Source: an uncultured virus (IMG/VR IMGVR_UViG_3300042276_000826) (Duplodnaviria; Heunggongvirae; Uroviricota; Caudoviricetes). Taken from it: a DNA stretch of 64,000 nt. A model generated the notes under the pieces. It did no database searches and was not told the DNA's origin. It was given only the letters and a program-made list of their open reading frames with translations. Position 1 is the first letter of the stretch, and the number at the start of each line of letters is the position of its first letter. Positions 33,603-61,197 of this stretch are shown in pieces. The stretch lies in IMG/VR virus record IMGVR_UViG_3300042276_000826; one strand, written 5' to 3'. Position numbers and translations under genes: made by a program.

Positions 33603-35027
33603 CTAAGCTATTGAAATAGCTATAGGCGGGGCTTCTTTATCTTGAATACGAGATACTTCGGCAATACTAGCAATACTAGATACCTCATGTAACTTAATTA
33701 ACGAAGATAAAGTATGACTGGTTCTGTTTGAAAGTAGAGAAACTTTAGCCTCTAAATCCAACCTTGCCTTTTCAGACAAGGGTTTTAAAATAGCTCTTGT
33801 AAAATATCTTGAAGCTATATTATATGAAGCTGATAGGTCGGCATGATACATTTTATTGTTTTTAAATTTAGCAATATCTTTTTTCTTGCTTCTCTTAACT
33901 AATCCACTTCCATCAAACGCATACATAGAAGTTCCTCTTGCTAATACCTTAGAATATCTAATACTTTTAGAATGAGCTTTTTTAAAGCTTAAGTCTTGAA
34001 TTTTAGATTTTGCCCAAAATTGAAGTTTTGCTCTTAATCTTCTTGCTCCAAAGAAATGTTTTGGTAATCTCATCTTACCTAGATACTCAAACACAACAAC
34101 ATCTGCATTATTCTTGATTGCAAATTCTATAATCTCATCTACTGTATTTTGAATAATAAATTTTTGAAGATTATTTATCTTTCTCCAAAGTTTTGGTTTT
34201 TCATTTAGTATTCCTGATTCTCTTTTAGCTTTAGCAAGTTTATTTATAGCTGTTTTTAAACGGTCTTTTTCTATAGATTGATTGATAAATTTTCTATCTA
34301 TGACAGTTCCATTATAATCTATACAACTACAAACTGCACTATTAGTTAAGCCTAAATCCACACCAATTACTCTTTGTTGTTTAAGTGATGTCGAGTTAAG
34401 TTTAATCTCTGTTTGATATGGGATATGTAAAAAGTATTTTTTGCCTTTTTGTACTAAAGATGGATTTAGCTCTTTATATCCACTAAATCTAAACATTTTA
34501 CCTGAAAGTAATTCATTTGCTTTATAATCTATCTCTACCCATACCCAATCATTATTTTTATATAGTTTTATTTTGCCTTTTCCATCACTAATCTTATTCC
34601 ACATATTATCTTTATAAAATACTGGAAAGCTTTTAGGCTCATAATTTAATGTTGGTGGTTTTTCATAAAACTTTTTATTGTTTTTTATTTTATTTTCTTT
34701 TTTCTCCTTATAAAGCTTTAATCTTGAAAAGTGAGAATCACATACTCCTATAGCTTCCATTATAGTTGAACGTCTAAGATAACTTGGATATTTATAGAAC
34801 TCTTCACTAAAATCATATTTTATATTAGTATTTTTCGACGTTCTATGAGTTATAGCCTCTATATAGTTTAGCTTTTCTTTTGAATTTCCAAGTTCCAATA
34901 ATTTACTATACTCTTTTTCGCAAACTCTTATATAGAAGCTCAAAGCCTTATTATAGATACTAAGTGTCTCTTTGAAAATATTAGTATGGCTAGTGATTTT
35001 TAGTTTAGCTGTTTTTGTAATTTTCAT
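33603..35027 (-). CDS. tnpB: TnpB RNA-guided nuclease family protein
   Basis: RuvC motifs GVDLG, VFEYL, HADLSASYNI; no CxxC zinc finger; likely start MKITKTAKLKI at 35027. Confidence 0.88.
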   Translation of the reverse strand: MKITKTAKLKITSHTNIFKETLSIYNKALSFYIRVCEKEYSKLLELGNSKEKLNYIEAITHRTSKNTNIKYDFSEEFYKYPSYLRRSTIMEAIGVCDSHFSRLKLYKEKKENKIKNNKKFYEKPPTLNYEPKSFPVFYKDNMWNKISDGKGKIKLYKNNDWVWVEIDYKANELLSGKMFRFSGYKELNPSLVQKGKKYFLHIPYQTEIKLNSTSLKQQRVIGVDLGLTNSAVCSCIDYNGTVIDRKFINQSIEKDRLKTAINKLAKAKRESGILNEKPKLWRKINNLQKFIIQNTVDEIIEFAIKNNADVVVFEYLGKMRLPKHFFGARRLRAKLQFWAKSKIQDLSFKKAHSKSIRYSKVLARGTSMYAFDGSGLVKRSKKKDIAKFKNNKMYHADLSASYNIASRYFTRAILKPLSEKARLDLEAKVSLLSNRTSHTLSSLIKLHEVSSIASIAEVSRIQDKEAPPIAISIA

Positions 35028-35248
35028 ATTAAGTCTTCCATATCCCAATCATCAAACTTTCCACTCCTCACTAACTCTATTCTCTCTTTTAAGGTTTTAC
35101 CTAATTCTAAATTAATTTCATCATTTATTTCTTTTTCAGTCATTCCATCTTTTAAGCCCCAAAACATCATTTGGGGAATTAGTGTGTTATTGATAAATCT
35201 TTTGATTCTATTATTTGATTTTGTGCTTATTGGTAACACTAAAGACAT
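35024..35248 (-). CDS. 74-aa ORF inside the IS, coupled to tnpB
   Basis: AGGAG RBS; TTGACA-17-TAAAAT promoter at 35277-35305; ATGA overlap with tnpB. Confidence 0.6.
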   Translation of the reverse strand: MSLVLPISTKSNNRIKRFINNTLIPQMMFWGLKDGMTEKEINDEINLELGKTLKERIELVRSGKFDDWDMEDLI

Positions 35249-38992: not shown

Positions 38993-39791
38993 TAAATTTC
39001 CTTGTTTTAGTATTTTTAGTATCGTTAATGTAAATTATTTCAAAATCATCAAGCTCCGCAAGTTCTTCTTTAAAGAAATCTTGTATTTTTTTAGAAAAAT
39101 ACATTTTTACAAACAAAGTGACACGCTTTCTTTTTAAATCAATAATACACTTGTTGTAACCATAGCTTTTTCCAAGCTCTTTGAGTTTATTAAAAATTGA
39201 GTTGATTTTATGCCTAACCACTTGCTCATGTACACGTATGGCTTTTACTTCAAAACGTCCATTTTTTTGCTTAATTTTTTCTCTTTTTGGGATATAAAAT
39301 AAAAATCCCTCGCTGTCATATTTAAATAGCTCTTCTTTGAATTCATTTGAAAAAAAGTTATTAGGCTTAATCTCAACTTGTGCAAAGAAGTTATTTATTT
39401 TTTTATTATTTTTGTTATAAAACTCAAACTCTACTTTATTGTCTTTTGTAATCTTCACGGGGTGTCCAAAGAGAATGTTTTTATTAGCTTTTAAGATTCC
39501 TAAAAAAAATGTTTTAATTTTATTAAGTGAGAATTGCATCAGTTGCTCATTCAATAATCTCTTAAAAAGCTTGTGTTTCTCATTGGACATAATATAATAC
39601 TCTGTTTTGTAATATCCTTGCTTGTCACTTAAACCTATAAAATATCCTGTTTGAGACAAAGAGACATCAAGAAAGCCATACGTTTTAGAAACAGCTTTTT
39701 TAATAATTTCCCTCACCTCGAAATCTTCAAGATTATAGTGTTTGCAAAGCTCTTCAATTTCATTGTTTATATTATCTTTTCCAAGCAACAT
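38979..39791 (-). CDS. hypothetical protein, weakly NusA-N-like
   Basis: 270 aa; IEELCKHYNLEDFEVREIIKKAV resembles the NusA N-terminus. Confidence 0.5.
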   Translation of the reverse strand: MLLGKDNINNEIEELCKHYNLEDFEVREIIKKAVSKTYGFLDVSLSQTGYFIGLSDKQGYYKTEYYIMSNEKHKLFKRLLNEQLMQFSLNKIKTFFLGILKANKNILFGHPVKITKDNKVEFEFYNKNNKKINNFFAQVEIKPNNFFSNEFKEELFKYDSEGFLFYIPKREKIKQKNGRFEVKAIRVHEQVVRHKINSIFNKLKELGKSYGYNKCIIDLKRKRVTLFVKMYFSKKIQDFFKEELAELDDFEIIYINDTKNTKTRKFNGKT

Positions 39792-40219
39792 TATTCACCA
39801 ATCAAAGTTTATTAAATTATAGTAACTTATTAATAAAAGATAAATTAATTTTATTAAATCATTAAAATTTTATTATTTTGAAGCCCACCAGTAAACGAAA
39901 TTGCTTGAAATTTTGGTTATATAAAGAAGAGATATGGTGGGCTATATAGAATTATAACAAAGAAAATCCAAAAAAACTTAATTTTTTAATAAAATTTAAT
40001 TAATTAATAAAAAAACTTTTTTATTTATAGATTTTTAAGTTTCCATAGATTAAAATTATGAATATTTTTTTTAATTTTATTGTATTTTACAATAATGAAC
40101 GCATTTTTCTTCTTCTTGCTTTATAGAAGTTAAACAGCGTGTCCTAATAAGGACAAAGCGATAATCAATAGGCACTCTTGCAAGAGAGTAATATCGCTAG
40201 GTGTAAAACCTAAAATAGC

Positions 40220-41445
40220 CTTGAAACGGTGAAATTTGCCGTTTTCAAATTCCTTAAATTGACGGGGAGTACCTAAAGTTTTTTGGTACTAAGCATGTAT
40301 AGTGATATATATGTGGCGATGGGTAATTCCATTGATTGTATAAAAATTTGTGACCATAGCACAAATAAAGATGCAATCTTAATCGGTACAGTAACAAGCC
40401 AAAAAAATAGATAAGAGCAGCAGCTCTTTGATAAATGGGCAATCCGCAGCCAAGACACTTAAAGAGTGTAAGGTTCAGAGACTAGGAATAGCTTACGCAC
40501 ATCTATAAAAGCGTAAGTCAAGTAGGCAATAAGCAACTTCTTAATCGACTCCAATTTTCTTTTTTATTTTACAAATAAAGAATGACAATATAGGAGATCA
40601 AAATGTCAAACAATCAAACACTAAGAATAGATATACAAGCAATTCAAAAACTAAAGTTTTTTGAAACACTGGATAAAACAACACAAAACAGTTTAACTTT
40701 TATGTTAAGAAACCCAAGCCACACAAGAGTAATTTACATGGAAGACCCAGAGGGTATTTCAGATAGATTGTTTTCAAGTGTTGCTAGAATTGATGCAACT
40801 AAAGGGTTTTTAAACAATGCACTCAATGGTATTATTAAGCCAACAGATCCACAAAAGTTTTTTACAAAATATCCCGAATACGGTATTGCATTTCAAGAGT
40901 TAATTGATGCAATTAAAAAAGTTGAAAACATGGGATATGACTTAGCAAGTACACTGCCTGTTTCATCATTAAGAAACAAAGCAATTAAAAGAGAAATCAC
41001 AAAAAGAAAGCCAAAACAAGAGGCTGCACCAAAAGCAAAGGCTGAGGTGAAAACACCAAAAGAAAAAGAAACGCCAAAAAGTGATAAAAAGGTTGAAACA
41101 GCACCAAAAGCTGAAACAAAAGATGCAAAAGTTGAAGCAGCACCAAAAGCTACTGCAACACCAAAAGCATCAGAAGTTAAGAAAACCGAAACAGCAGCAA
41201 CAAAAGCTTCAACAACAGCATCAGAAGTTAAAACAGAAGTAAAAGCTGCAACCTCAACTGAAAAGAAATAAAAAGTTTGATTAAGAAGTAATGATTGTCG
41301 AAAAAGGGAACATAGAAGATATAGTCCGTCCGTGTATGACTTAAGATAAGTTTGGTTTAGCTTTGTCATGCACCCTGCTTTAGAAATAAAGCTTGTCATA
41401 CGAAAGGTATGAGCAGTTGCCTGTATTACACGGGTAAACGGGTAG
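40220..41445 (+). ncRNA. group I intron-like ribozyme (IC1-like P4-P6 with P5abc) with internal ORF; boundaries approximate
   Basis: P AAATTGACGGGGA 40256-40268; Q AATCCGCAGCCAAG 40441-40454; R GTTCAGAGACTA 40473-40484; S AAGATATAGTCC 41316-41327; A-rich bulge GGTACAGTAACAAG 40385-40398; P9 hairpins downstream of S. Confidence 0.85.
40603..41271 (+). CDS. ribozyme-embedded protein with Ala/Lys/Thr/Glu/Pro-rich (histone-like) tail
   Basis: 222 aa, strong RBS; no LAGLIDADG/GIY-YIG/HNH motif; lies between the R and S elements. Confidence 0.8.
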   Translation: MSNNQTLRIDIQAIQKLKFFETLDKTTQNSLTFMLRNPSHTRVIYMEDPEGISDRLFSSVARIDATKGFLNNALNGIIKPTDPQKFFTKYPEYGIAFQELIDAIKKVENMGYDLASTLPVSSLRNKAIKREITKRKPKQEAAPKAKAEVKTPKEKETPKSDKKVETAPKAETKDAKVEAAPKATATPKASEVKKTETAATKASTTASEVKTEVKAATSTEKK

Positions 41446-41808
41446 TGTATTGCGAACACTATTGAACACAAGAGTTATTTAATAAACCATAAAAAATATA
41501 CCGTACTAGACGGTGACAAGTGAATAATGATAAAAGAGTACCGTAAGGGAAAAACATTACAATCAAGTTATCTAGTAGCCAAAGAGGCTCTATTTTTTAC
41601 AAAGCCTCTTGAGGCTACTTCTGTCTAGTGCAGAGTTTTTGTAAAGAATACACCTCTAATGGCGTTCATCCGAATCTCACAAAATAAATTTAACAGAGAT
41701 AGTAAATTAGTTGGTAACAGCTATGATGATGCGTACACCTAACAGTGCAAACTGACGTTTTCTTTTTAATTAAAGAATAAATAGGAAACCCGTTGGAGGC
41801 GGAAAAAA

Positions 41809-42003
41809 ATGGAAAATATTAAAAATGAAAGACTTGAGAGAATCAAGTCGCATTTGAGCAAATTTGTTTGCTCAAAAATCTTAGCTAAGGCTAAGATACA
41901 AAAAATAAAGGGAAGCAAACAAACGCTTCCACACTACTTGATAGAGTGGTGGGATGACGAGGAAGGCTATCAAAGCCTTTCTATCCCCCTTAAGTGGAGA
42001 TAA
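41809..42003 (+). CDS. small hypothetical protein
   Basis: 64 aa, GGAGG RBS, followed by hairpin aagagga/tcctctt plus T-run. Confidence 0.5.
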   Translation: MENIKNERLERIKSHLSKFVCSKILAKAKIQKIKGSKQTLPHYLIEWWDDEEGYQSLSIPLKWR

Positions 42004-42253
42004 GAAGAAGAGGATTAATTTCCTCTTTTATAACTGTTCAAAGCCAATATTTGCTTTATGATACTTATTGGCTTTGCCAATATTCCTATCATTTCCTTAT
42101 ATGGTTTTGAAGAGTTATATACTCTTTTTAGACTTCATGATTAATTTCATGAATTTGTGGGTACTTAAACAGTAATGTTTGCTGTCACACAAAGTCGAAT
42201 TGCAAAATGAGTTATATGGCAATTCATTATATGAAATCATAGAGGAGAGAACT

Positions 42254-57551: not shown

Positions 57552-60500
57552 ATGAATGATTTAAACACAACAAATTTTACAGTTTCTTCGGTAGTAAGTT
57601 ATCCAAATAGAGATAATCGTTTCGGTAACAACAGTTATAGAGGAAACTGTACAGGCTTATTGATTAAAGATATGATTAATTTCTTTAAGCCAAAACTTTT
57701 TGTAGATGCTTGTGAGGGAAGCGGTACATCAAGAGATGTATGTAAAGCCTTGGGCATCAATTATGTAGGTTTAGACTTACGCTATGGCAATGACTTCACA
57801 AAGATGTCAATTGCAAAAGAGTTGCCACACTTAGCCGATTTGTGTTTTACACATCCTCCGTACCACGATATGATTAAATACAGTGGTCAACAGTGGAATA
57901 AAGGACAAGGTTTGGTTGAAGGTGACACATCACACTGCAAAAGTGTTGATGAATTTTTAGCGATGTCACAAGTAATGTTGTTAAATCAAAGAGAAGCCAC
58001 ACGAAATGGTGGAGTTTATGCTACTTGTGCGACTTGTTGAATAGTGAAAAGCTATTCTGCCAATAAGGTCATTAAATATATTGGCAAACTAATTTTTCGA
58101 TAAGTGGAATGATGGAGTAACGCCCTGAAACGCTTACACTGATACTACGGATAGCAAATTGTATCGCTAAATACGAAATGTTATAAGCCCGTTGAAGTCG
58201 GCTAAGAGCTACCCTAACACAAGAATTATCTTGATGAGGCAATGCGAACCAGAGGTGGTCGAGTAGTGATAGGTCGGGTGTCTATAAAATATCTATGATG
58301 AGAATGTGCATAAGCACTGACGAATTTCCGAATGTAAGGGTCTAAACATAAAATATACAGAAATGTATATACTACAAACTGTAGGGCATAAGTGGTAAAG
58401 TAAAAATGGGTTGTATGAAATACCATATAGTGTTAAAGGCACTATCAATATGCAGGCTCAAAGGAAACATCTAAGGATATATGCAAAGATAGAAAGATTG
58501 GAACAAGGAAAATTAGAGATATGGAGACTTAAGCGGTCTATGAAATATTAAGATATATAAATTCGCAAGATACTAAAATCTTTTAACTCTAATGAAAGCG
58601 AAGCCACTACCGTTATATTATACTGACTATATAATATTGAAAGAAATCTGTAATGGATTTGTTAGGAAAGGGCTTTAGTCAAAGTTTATTAAACAAATAA
58701 AACTAAATACAAATCAAAAGTTCGAGTAAGATTAAGAGAGAATTTCCTATAAGGAGTTCGATTTTGAATAATCAAAAGAATCTGAAAAGACAGAAATTAA
58801 GAAATAATGAATACTACCAAATGCAAGATATTCAAGATAGATTATATATGCAAAGTTCAAAAGGTACAAAATTCACTCATTTAATGGAAATCATTACAAG
58901 TGAAAACAATATCTTACTAGCATATAGAAATATTAAGAAAAACAGCGGTAGTAACACAAAAGGTGTAGATGGTAAAGACATTAGTCATTTGGCTAGTCTT
59001 GAACCTGAAACACTAATAAAATTAGTTCAAATCAAATTAAAAAACTACTTCCCTAACAAGGTGCGAAGAGTAGAAATACCAAAACCTGATGGGAAATTAA
59101 GACCATTGGGGATACCGACAATTATGGATAGACTAATACAACAGTGTATATTACAAGTATTAGAACCTATTTGTGAAGCTAAGTTTTACAAACATAGCTA
59201 TGGTTTTCGCCCTTTAAGAAGTACAAAACACGCAATTAGTAGGGCTAATTTCCTAGCCCAAAAGAACAATCTACATTATGTTGTAGATGTTGATATAAAA
59301 GGCTTCTTTGATAATATAAATCACGGAAAACTTATTAAACAACTGTGGACTTTGGGAATAAGAGATAAAGCATTAATTACAGTAATTTCAAAAATGTTAA
59401 AAGCAGAAATCGAAAATGTGGAAATACCCGATAAAGGTACACCACAAGGTGGAATATTATCTCCGCTCTTAGCTAATGTTGTTCTAAATGAATTCGACTG
59501 GTGGATTAACTCTCAATGGGAAAGTATTCCAACCAAAAAACAATACGCTAGTTATTCAAAAGACCCAAATGGGAAAAAATATCGAGCACTAAAAACAACA
59601 AATCTAAAAGAAGTATATATCGTAAGATACGCAGACGATTTTAAACTCTTTTGCAGAAATCACCAAGATGCAGTTAAACTCTTTGAAGCCTCTAAACAGT
59701 GGTTAAGAAATAGATTACATCTTGAAGTAAGCAAAGAAAAATCAAAAATTGTAAACTTACGAAAAAACTACTCTTACTTTCTAGGTATAAAATTTAAAGT
59801 ACACAAAAAAGGTAAGAAGAAAGATAAAAACACTAAGTGGGTGGTAAAATCCCACATTCAAGAAAAAGCTTTGAACAAAATGAAAGAAAATATTAGAAAA
59901 CATATCAAAAATATACAAAAATCAAAGGTAAATTTAAATCTATCAATAGATTTATATAACTCCTTTGTAATAGGAATACACAACTATTATAGTTGTGCTA
60001 CGAATTGTAATTTAGATATGGCAAAACTTTCTAATCAAACACGAACTAAAATCTTTGTAAGACTAAAAAGCAGAAGAATAAATAAATCAGATAAATTACC
60101 TGACTACATTAAAAAAGTATATGGTAGAAGTGAAATGTTAAGAATGTTAGGTGAAAAAGCAATTTTGCCACTTTCATATATTCAACACTCAAAGCTAATG
60201 AACTTTAGCCAAACCAATATCTATAATCCAATAGATAGAGAGAAAATTTACAACTCTCAAAAAGTTGCGGATAACAAGATAATCAGATATTTAATTGAAA
60301 ATCCTATTCAAGGACAATCAACTGAATATAATGACAATCGTATATCTCTATATATAGGACAATTAGGTAAATGTGCAGTAACTAAAGAAGAATTAGAAAT
60401 TGGAAATATGGAATGTCATCACATTCATCCAAGAAGCAAAGGTGGGCTAGATAGTTACAAAAATTTAGTATTAATTACTAAAGAAGTACATAAACTAATA

Positions 60501-61197
60501 CACTCAACACAATTGGAAACAATTAGCAAATATCTGAAATATATACCTACTGATAAAATTACCCTTGAAAAGCTAAATAAATTTAGAACTAAAGCTGGTA
60601 ATCTTGAAATTTGTCTATAAAGATTTAATTGATTAAGTATTTAAGTATAAAGTTAAATAAACTTTGATGGAACGCCGTGTGCGGTGAAAGTCGCACGCAC
60701 GGTGTGAAGCGGGGGAAAAGTTGGAGATAACATCAAATTCTTACCTATCGCTATTGATTGGCGACCAAAAAGTTGCAGGTGTGTGCAGCTCATATCAAGC
60801 GGATTTTATTAAAATGATGCCTAAAAATGAGCTTTTGAATGTTGTAATTAAAATGCAATATAACACACACAGTGCAAACATTCAATACTCAAATAGAAAT
60901 TTTATTCCTATTAGCCATGAGTATTTGATTCTTTGGAAAAAGAAAGCAGCTTCTATTTATCAAGTGGCTTTCAGTATTGCCAAAGAAGGACAAAAACAGA
61001 TTGCTAATACATGGCGAGCTGTTATAAGAATTGTGATGATGCAGTTTAATGGTTCAGTTTCATTAAATACAATTTATGATGAGGTTGAAAAAGTTGCATC
61101 TCACTTGATTGCAAAAAATGCAAACTACAAAGCAAAAATCAGACAAGTCTTGCAAAAACACCATACAAGTGTTGCAAGAGGCGTTTGGGCTGCGTAA
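57552..61197 (+). CDS. amino-DNA methyltransferase with C-terminal winged helix, split by a group II intron (exons 57552-58026 and 60755-61197; 305 aa spliced)
   Basis: DACEGSGT and THPPY in exon 1; junction restores GVYAT-L-IGDQK in frame; HEYL in exon 2. Confidence 0.88.
58027..60754 (+). mobile_element. group II intron
   Basis: 5' GTGCG at 58027; domain V GAACGCCGTGTGCGGTGAAAGTCGCACGCACGGTG ~60670-60705; domain VI ending CCTATCGCTAT at 60754. Confidence 0.95.
58764..60620 (+). CDS. ltrA: group II intron RT/maturase/HNH endonuclease
   Basis: RPLGIPTIMDR, GTPQGGILSPLL, RYADDF, C-terminal CHHIHP...GG...YKNL..HKLIH. Confidence 0.95.
   Translation: MNNQKNLKRQKLRNNEYYQMQDIQDRLYMQSSKGTKFTHLMEIITSENNILLAYRNIKKNSGSNTKGVDGKDISHLASLEPETLIKLVQIKLKNYFPNKVRRVEIPKPDGKLRPLGIPTIMDRLIQQCILQVLEPICEAKFYKHSYGFRPLRSTKHAISRANFLAQKNNLHYVVDVDIKGFFDNINHGKLIKQLWTLGIRDKALITVISKMLKAEIENVEIPDKGTPQGGILSPLLANVVLNEFDWWINSQWESIPTKKQYASYSKDPNGKKYRALKTTNLKEVYIVRYADDFKLFCRNHQDAVKLFEASKQWLRNRLHLEVSKEKSKIVNLRKNYSYFLGIKFKVHKKGKKKDKNTKWVVKSHIQEKALNKMKENIRKHIKNIQKSKVNLNLSIDLYNSFVIGIHNYYSCATNCNLDMAKLSNQTRTKIFVRLKSRRINKSDKLPDYIKKVYGRSEMLRMLGEKAILPLSYIQHSKLMNFSQTNIYNPIDREKIYNSQKVADNKIIRYLIENPIQGQSTEYNDNRISLYIGQLGKCAVTKEELEIGNMECHHIHPRSKGGLDSYKNLVLITKEVHKLIHSTQLETISKYLKYIPTDKITLEKLNKFRTKAGNLEICL

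Follow-up and report, generated by a model that had tools for sequence, protein, structure and literature searches.

We investigated a window of 64,000 nucleotides of DNA from an uncultured virus (IMG/VR record IMGVR_UViG_3300042276_000826), in which the genes run leftwards up to position 39791 (TraG_N, TraK_C and others) and rightwards from position 40603. At the start of the rightward set lies an element that, judged from its sequence motifs and its fit to structure models, is a genuine group I ribozyme and intron. Downstream of it follow ssb, a RecT-like gene, a RecE-like exonuclease (PHROG 434, E 1e-29), a Toprim protein, ArdC, RadC and a group II intron. The RecT-like gene scores 22.5 bits in Pfam, below the cut-off, and tblastn matches it to annotated RecT. 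The description of the ribozyme as heading an ssb-recT-exo-ardC arm, given in an initial annotation made from the sequence alone, is therefore borne out. We infer that this arm is the leading region, which probably enters the recipient first. The features of the intron and its surroundings are collected in Table 1.

Table 1. Features at the group I intron locus; positions are those of the window.
Feature	Position	Strand	Basis
Structured non-coding leader, predicted 5' exon; three hairpins, outside the ribozyme	40128..40222	+	Fold, Rfam, stop codons
P1: exon strand 40223-40230 with internal guide 40238-40246, loop 40231-40237	40223..40246	+	Sequence read
P3 5' strand (AUUCCU), J3/4 and P4 5' strand with bulged A (element P)	40249..40268	+	20-mer identity, RF00028, model R1
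P5 and P5abc-type extension	40270..40439	+	All helices aligned by R1
P4 3' strand (Q), P6 (GCC/GGU), P6a (ACACU/AGUGU), J6/7 and P7 5' strand (R)	40441..40484	+	RF00028, Q...R pattern, R1
Putative proximal alternative P3' strand GGAAU and 8-bp hairpin (40491-98/40511-18)	40485..40520	+	GGAAU complementary to 40249-53; sequence read
Open reading frame (ORF) cassette closed by an 11-bp helix	40536..41289	+	40536-46 with 41279-89
ORF222 (222 residues), looped out by the 11-bp helix	40603-41271	+	AGGAG 6 nt before the ATG
J7/3 and P3' strand AAAAAGGGAAC, homologous to AAACAGGGAAC of the relatives	41301..41311	+	Pairs with 40250-55
J8/7 and P7 3' strand (element S)	41316..41327	+	UAGUCC pairs with G(A)GACUA at 40478-84
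P9 domain, five hairpins, two with GAAA-type loops	41328..41472	+	Fold z -2.8; variants

The ribozyme core and its P5abc-type extension

The four core elements P, Q, R and S occur once each, in this order, at 40256, 40441, 40473 and 41316, where the initial annotation had read them, and both P4 and P7 are formed. The Q...R pattern has one match within the 64-kb window and none in 100 shuffled sequences. Element S matches exactly and is the only match in the window when up to one mismatch is allowed (0.24 expected by chance in 64 kb). The earlier pairings of P7, P6 and P6a also hold, the first as read in the sequence and the other two as aligned by a covariance model.

A search of the window with RF00028 at the gathering score (50 bits) yields no match. 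In E-value mode the same model gives a partial match (40257-40486, 25.7 bits, E 5.9e-4, model positions 57-150). The match is only partial because the model cannot bridge the 0.8 kb, the ORF insert, between R and S. We used a second covariance model, R1, which was built from 15 introns (12 from phage DNA-polymerase genes and three from viral Hsp70 genes) with the window excluded; the P4-P5-P5a-P5b-P5c-P6-P6a structure was written onto the 15 intron sequences. In this alignment 98.2% of the cells are paired and both sides have changed in 25 of the 40 pairs; none of 500 shuffles was as good, and no slid register comes close. R1 has a single match in the window, at 40247-40484, which covers the full model (1-164 of 164) with 94.4 bits and an E value of 5.8e-20. 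A significant group I model match and covariation of the P4-P6 pairs among relatives, both of which had been left for later checking, are thus available.

The initial annotation had also recognized a full P5abc. R1 aligns P5, P5a, P5b, P5c and the A-rich bulge, and the two strands of P5a are complementary in all 16 sequences (10 distinct pair sets, the UUUUUUGG/CCAAAAAA pair of the window among them), so this extension is real. P5a pairs 40279-86 with 40399-406, P5b, capped by a GUGA loop, occupies 40294-40313, the enlarged P5c spans about 40317-40384, and the A-rich bulge lies at 40385-40398. Relative to R1, the window has 59 additional nucleotides in P5c and another 28 after P5a, the latter forming an extra hairpin (40413-40428). 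On the minus strand this hairpin, with the T run that follows it, scores as an intrinsic terminator; this is probably coincidental.

Relatives and distribution

The 20-mer across P3, J3/4 and P4, including the bulged A, is identical in the window and in 24 IMG/VR loci (L253-L276), all of which, by exon sequence, lie at one site of one gene. The host gene was checked by profile in one locus, L256, whose intron has no ORF and scores 93.7 bits over its full length on RF00028. Its two exons correspond to positions 50-356 and 359-659 of the PHROG 1252 (DNA polymerase) profile, which places the intron at 356|359. Most of the other introns in this group carry an ORF inside P8, of GIY-YIG type by eye only. 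The phage exon ends in ...GUU(U/G)CGU, with the last U pairing with the second G of GGCG, and the joined exons restore D-V-S/A-S-x-Y-P; we take the insertion site to be the DxxSLYP motif. P10 of the phage introns has 4-6 bp; in the 21 loci where the 3' end could be located, it covaries with the 3' exon in six combinations.

The window intron shares with these phage introns the 20-mer, a P1 directly 5' of P3, the P5abc-type extension with its A-rich bulge, the P3' strand AGGGAAC, and element S. However, the phage introns split a coding gene and restore its frame, whereas the exons in the window are non-coding; their ORF is in P8, whereas the unrelated ORF of the window lies between P7 and P3'; and in the window P5c is enlarged, the P9 domain is larger, and P8 is missing from the corresponding place.

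R1 also matches seven Clostridium/Clostridiales genome loci (119-135 bits over 161-163 nt) in a scan that covered the first 100 of at least 120 listed loci. One of the seven, the intron of the Clostridium locus L003, has the same P4-P6 and P5abc architecture and is likewise found in a bacterium, but it splits DNA polymerase III alpha (dnaE), a chromosomal essential gene, and carries a recognized homing endonuclease ORF of the LAGLIDADG type. The P5abc architecture is also found in introns of viral (giant-virus) Hsp70 genes. By sequence, the nearest relatives of the window intron thus appear to be introns of phage DNA-polymerase, Clostridium dnaE and viral Hsp70 genes, and not those of eukaryotic rDNA. 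Since introns with P5abc are at home in phages and bacteria, the initial framing of the ribozyme as eukaryotic rDNA-like is unneeded.

The assignment to subgroup IC1 fares no better. IC1 introns are marked by P2 and P2.1 between P1 and P3 and by a P5abc with an A-rich bulge; the window intron has the latter but no P2 or P2.1, since only two nucleotides separate the end of the P1 3' strand (40246) from the first position of P3 (40249). The IC1 introns of the Tetrahymena type, found in nuclear rDNA, have, like the window intron, a P5abc with an A-rich bulge, GNRA loops and a P9 domain of several hairpins, but the window intron differs from them in the absence of P2/P2.1, in its bacterial plasmid host and in its phage and bacterial sequence relatives. 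A review counts IC1 among the bacterial group I subgroups (PMC3984707).

Close relatives were sought in several collections. The generic Q...R pattern occurs at a minimum of 120 loci in bacterial genome contigs and at least 120 loci in IMG/VR viral contigs, and none of the matches listed is similar outside the core. A pattern combining the A-rich bulge with Q has no match in IMG/VR viral contigs or in JGI metagenome contigs. The Q...R pattern extended by GGAAT has four metagenome matches, none of them close to the window: one intron in an apparent tRNA gene (by eye), two Hsp70-gene introns and one short fragment at a contig end. In PLSDB there is no match to the window ribozyme, and a search with the ORF-less relative finds only three Clostridium botulinum plasmids. 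GenBank phages give core-only matches that cover at most 20% of the query (25 records).

The homologues that the initial annotation looked for upstream of ssb were not encountered: among the ssb-relative loci in IMG/VR (nine found, seven scanned), none gave a group I or other Rfam match at E<=0.01. The best match of TraG is from a Malaciobacter plasmid (31% identity), and this plasmid has no RF00028 or other group I match. We found no literature that joins group I introns with the plasmid leading region. Bacterial group I introns are known in tRNA, rRNA and phage genes and in a few essential genes. The intron described here is unusual in lying on a plasmid backbone and outside any host gene, in carrying in J7/3 a cargo not recognizable as an endonuclease, and in missing P8. 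According to a 2008 survey, plasmid genes other than those of prophages had not been found to contain group I introns (PMC2504315).

Splice sites, the J7/3 cassette and ORF222

The initial annotation could not find a canonical P1 with a U-G splice site. A P1 of this kind is present just upstream of P3 (Table 1): U40230.G40238 tops an 8-bp helix between exon and guide, with U40242 bulged. The predicted 5' splice site is 40230|40231, which would place the start of the intron at 40231, 136 nt inside the start given earlier (40095). The earlier span of 40095-41670 appears too wide at either end. In all 24 phage relatives that were parsed, P1 immediately precedes P3 and the splice-site U pairs with a G; the P1 of the window has the same position and polarity, with three pairs flipped from U-A to A-U. 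The guide is complementary to an exon that is not the phage exon, and this rebuilding of P1 on a different exon sequence suggests that the intron has lived, and been maintained, where it is now found. No candidate stood out in a brute-force scan for P1/P10 upstream of 40226.

The predicted 5' exon is a structured leader. The fold of 40128-40250, which includes the P1 hairpin, has a free energy of -33.1 kcal/mol (z -4.1), and none of 200 shuffles is as stable. One of the three leader hairpins (40128-40222) is capped by GCAA. The flanks of the intron contain stop codons in all three plus-strand frames and are non-coding. A scan of these flanks for tRNA and tmRNA found none, and an Rfam search of 39900-41900 at E<=10 shows no other family and no riboswitch beside the ribozyme. 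This agrees with the initial reading that neither flank looks like a tRNA, an rRNA or a split coding sequence. A promoter scan returned five sites compared with 9.4 expected from shuffles, and no usable promoter. The location in a non-coding 5' leader is shared with the group I ribozyme of Clostridioides difficile that is controlled by a cyclic di-GMP-II riboswitch. However, the Rfam search found no aptamer beside the ribozyme of the window, and no start-site or ribosome-site logic is evident. The same search led us to reject a known aptamer directly upstream of P1, forming a riboswitch-ribozyme tandem.

For the 3' half, the comparative data are DNA contigs of related plasmids from wastewater (X14 and X15; four runs). 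The P9-type hairpins that the initial annotation placed after S are supported by the fold and by a compensatory change in the variant X15, where G41377>C and C41392>G exchange the two bases that close one of the hairpins. A further change, C41431>U, turns a G-C into a G.U pair, and the remaining changes in P9 are in loops. This compensatory pair and the loop-biased changes in the variant contigs point to structural constraint in the P9 domain.

The best candidate for the terminal ωG is G41472, with the best candidate 3' splice site at 41472|41473. The X14 contig follows the window over 41316-41492 and then joins it again at 42032, with TAC between, and thus is without a 539-bp block. Because of this boundary at 41492, and because there is no G between 41475 and 41506, the terminal G is most likely at or before 41474. 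The block itself (41493-42031) contains strong hairpins (41500-14 and 41574-41619) and a 64-residue ORF (41809-42003) with a GGAGG site; in X15 the ORF part has diverged at equal length. A 16-mer common to ORF222 and 41466-81 was dismissed as being at chance level, since 18 of 300 shuffles score as well.

In the relatives, as judged from L256 aligned to RF00028, the order after P7 is AAAC, the P3' strand AGGGAAC, P8 and J8/7. In the window, AGGGAAC is found at 41305-11 and only four nucleotides (41312-41315, AUAG) separate it from S. The X15 variant, which is 97% identical, has 13 additional nucleotides at the same spot that form a 6-bp hairpin (GCAAUG-UAUUUA-CGUUGC; reconstructed by hand from the table of contig differences). 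The P3' strand that has its counterpart in the relatives is separated from P7 by the ORF cassette, which thus occupies J7/3, where other group I introns carry P7.1/P7.2. The GGAAU strand and hairpin at 40485-40520, with which this insert begins, may be a stand-in for P3'/P8, a P7.1-like element or a remnant. The simplest history starts from an ancestral intron that resembled those of the phages, into whose J7/3 the cassette would have been inserted, with P8 subsequently lost in the lineage of the window.

ORF222 has no match in Pfam, PHROG, NCBIfam or PDB sequences, and a word-index search with it retrieves only itself. When 1.84 billion representatives were searched exhaustively with residues 1-135, 15 relatives emerged (E<=1e-3); ten of these were looked up, and any that carry a name are called hypothetical protein. 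The family (P0001-P0016) comprises 16 representatives at 50% identity, all from metagenome sources, with a shared N-terminal domain of about 130 residues and a variable tail rich in Lys, Ala, Thr and Glu. In two of the 16 members the tail matches Pfam HC2 (histone-H1-like nucleoprotein). ORF222 thus belongs to a small family of proteins that has no name and whose tails resemble histone H1. AlphaFold, given the family alignment, predicts a helical N-terminal domain (mean predicted local distance difference test score of 70, and 85-95 over residues 50-130). Foldseek with this model gave no match at E<=0.001, VIA returned generic helical hairpins only (best Z 6.1), and the ESM Atlas model of ORF222 is poor and gave no usable look-alike. 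No relatives of ORF222 were found in IMG/VR or PLSDB; the family's protein alignments are too diverse for a locus search. We therefore regard ORF222 as cargo that is not recognizable, by sequence or model, as a homing endonuclease of the LAGLIDADG, GIY-YIG, HNH, His-Cys or PD-(D/E)xK type.

The union of a group I ribozyme with a foreign gene cassette recalls the IStrons (PMC4227781). However, Pfam finds no transposase of the IS200/IS605 type in ORF222 or in the 64-residue ORF, and the cassette of the window is inside the core and not at the 3' end. In the absence of such a transposase, we reject an identity with IStrons.

Other features of the window were noted in passing. The divergent intergenic region at 39791-40033 contains AT-rich imperfect inverted repeats (arms of 26-40 nt, 70-81% complementary) that flank a GC-clamped hairpin (39881-39945). 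It coincides with depth peaks and many loose ends in related contigs, and may be an origin, an origin of transfer or a repeated element. The group II intron occupies 58084-60754 (RF02004, 154.8 bits; RF00029, 60.5 bits), with a reverse transcriptase/HNH ORF at 58764-60620. It lies between small ORFs with weak matches to a DNA methylase (57552-58040) and to DpnI_C (60721-61197), and may split a methylase or restriction-related gene. An ORF of 481 residues on the minus strand (33603-35048) matches RuvC_1 and OrfB_IS605 and looks like a TnpB-type gene.

Nature of the intron and its possible roles

We favor, with a probability of roughly 0.6, the interpretation that the element is a mobile group I intron of a P5abc-bearing lineage, a passenger parked in the non-coding leader before the ssb-recT-exo-ardC arm. 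Since a proper P1 is present, the element is best described as an intron in a leader and not as the host-less ribozyme of the initial annotation. Under this interpretation, the leader would be transcribed rightwards, and P1 would arise between the exon GAAACGGU and the guide GCCGU(U)UUC. An exogenous G would attack after U40230, and the exons would be ligated near 41472|41473, with the removal of about 1.24 kb including ORF222, which would be translated from its own AGGAG site. Activity would need the proximal GGAAU strand and hairpin to replace P3'/P8. The mobile element would be parked where its loss or failure costs little. Whether the copy in the window can splice is uncertain because the P8 beside the ancestral P3' strand has been lost, and we hold self-splicing of this copy to be a tentative proposition, with the odds somewhat against it.

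Several observations weigh against a passenger intron of this kind. P10 is weak at G41472 (4 bp, offset 1). A stronger P10 is found only at G41633 (6 bp), inside the 539-bp block that is missing from the X14 contig; the 4-bp P10 at G41696 also falls inside this dispensable block. The copy in the window has no P8 hairpin after its ancestral-type P3' strand, and J7/3 carries a 0.8-kb insert (40485-41300). Furthermore, perfect P, Q, R and S motifs and covariation in the P9 hairpins are features that an intron without any use would have no need to maintain; the intact motifs and covarying P9 fit either a recent arrival or selection for function. Finally, the form without P8 accounts for 0.79-1.00 of the region's words in 12 of the 24 runs listed, and is therefore not a rare defective copy.

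Some of these observations would also be expected if the intron were a dead relic, which came from a phage or bacterial gene, had its catalysis killed by the J7/3 cassette and the 13-nt loss of P8, and has not yet decayed. The absence of P8 where the relatives and the X15 variant have one, the insert in J7/3, the weak P10 and the lack of a coding exon that demands splicing all favor this explanation. However, P1, P3, P4-P6, P7 and the motifs of the G site are intact, the proximal GGAAU and 8-bp hairpin could replace P3'/P8, and the changes between variants spare the helices. We consider a relic unlikely, if still worth serious attention.

The initial annotation had proposed a domesticated, free-standing ribozyme. 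In a version of this proposal adapted to the leader, catalysis would be kept to process the first transcript from the incoming plasmid: the ribozyme may free the ORF222 message or turn it into a circle, cut back the ssb-operon leader, or act as a control by alternating between its two P3'/P8 modules. In favor of such a role, the core motifs are perfect and the P9 hairpins covary at a site with no reading frame to rescue. The ribozyme also stands ahead of the ssb, RecT-like, exonuclease and ArdC genes of its arm, it has two alternative P3' strands, the leader upstream of it is strongly structured (z -4.1), and the form found in the window is the common one among the runs. However, the canonical P8 has been lost, the copy without it differing in this from its near-identical variant, and neither a riboswitch nor another Rfam family accompanies the ribozyme. 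A conserved job is further counted against by the seven scanned ssb-relative loci (of nine) without a ribozyme, by the lack of a match in PLSDB and in the Malaciobacter plasmid, and by the searches of the JGI metagenome and IMG/VR collections with specific patterns, in which no relative turned up. Domestication thus seems improbable to us.

The remaining explanation, a chance resemblance or an element acting at the DNA level (an origin of transfer or a single-strand promoter), has the location in a divergent intergenic region, where such elements are expected, and the AT-rich inverted repeats just upstream in its favor, but is refuted by the E value of 5.8e-20 to the independent model R1 and by the absence of the Q...R pattern from 100 shuffles, and we give it practically no weight.

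The locus shows that group I introns can settle in operon leaders, here in a conjugative backbone and with a P1 rebuilt for a non-coding target. The pair of near-identical variants with and without P8 provides a natural test of whether this part of the core is dispensable, and the 24 phage loci form a clean natural data set for the co-evolution of guide and exon. The ORF222 family, with its histone-H1-like tails, may provide the first gene expressed from the incoming plasmid. On a more speculative note, the ribozyme could be a working part of plasmid establishment that cuts the ORF222 message, linear or circular, out of the leader, shortens the leader of the ssb operon, and uses the two P3'/P8 modules as a folding switch. 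We regard this as a long shot; if it were true, a group I ribozyme would serve the gene expression of a conjugative element and not the survival of an intron.

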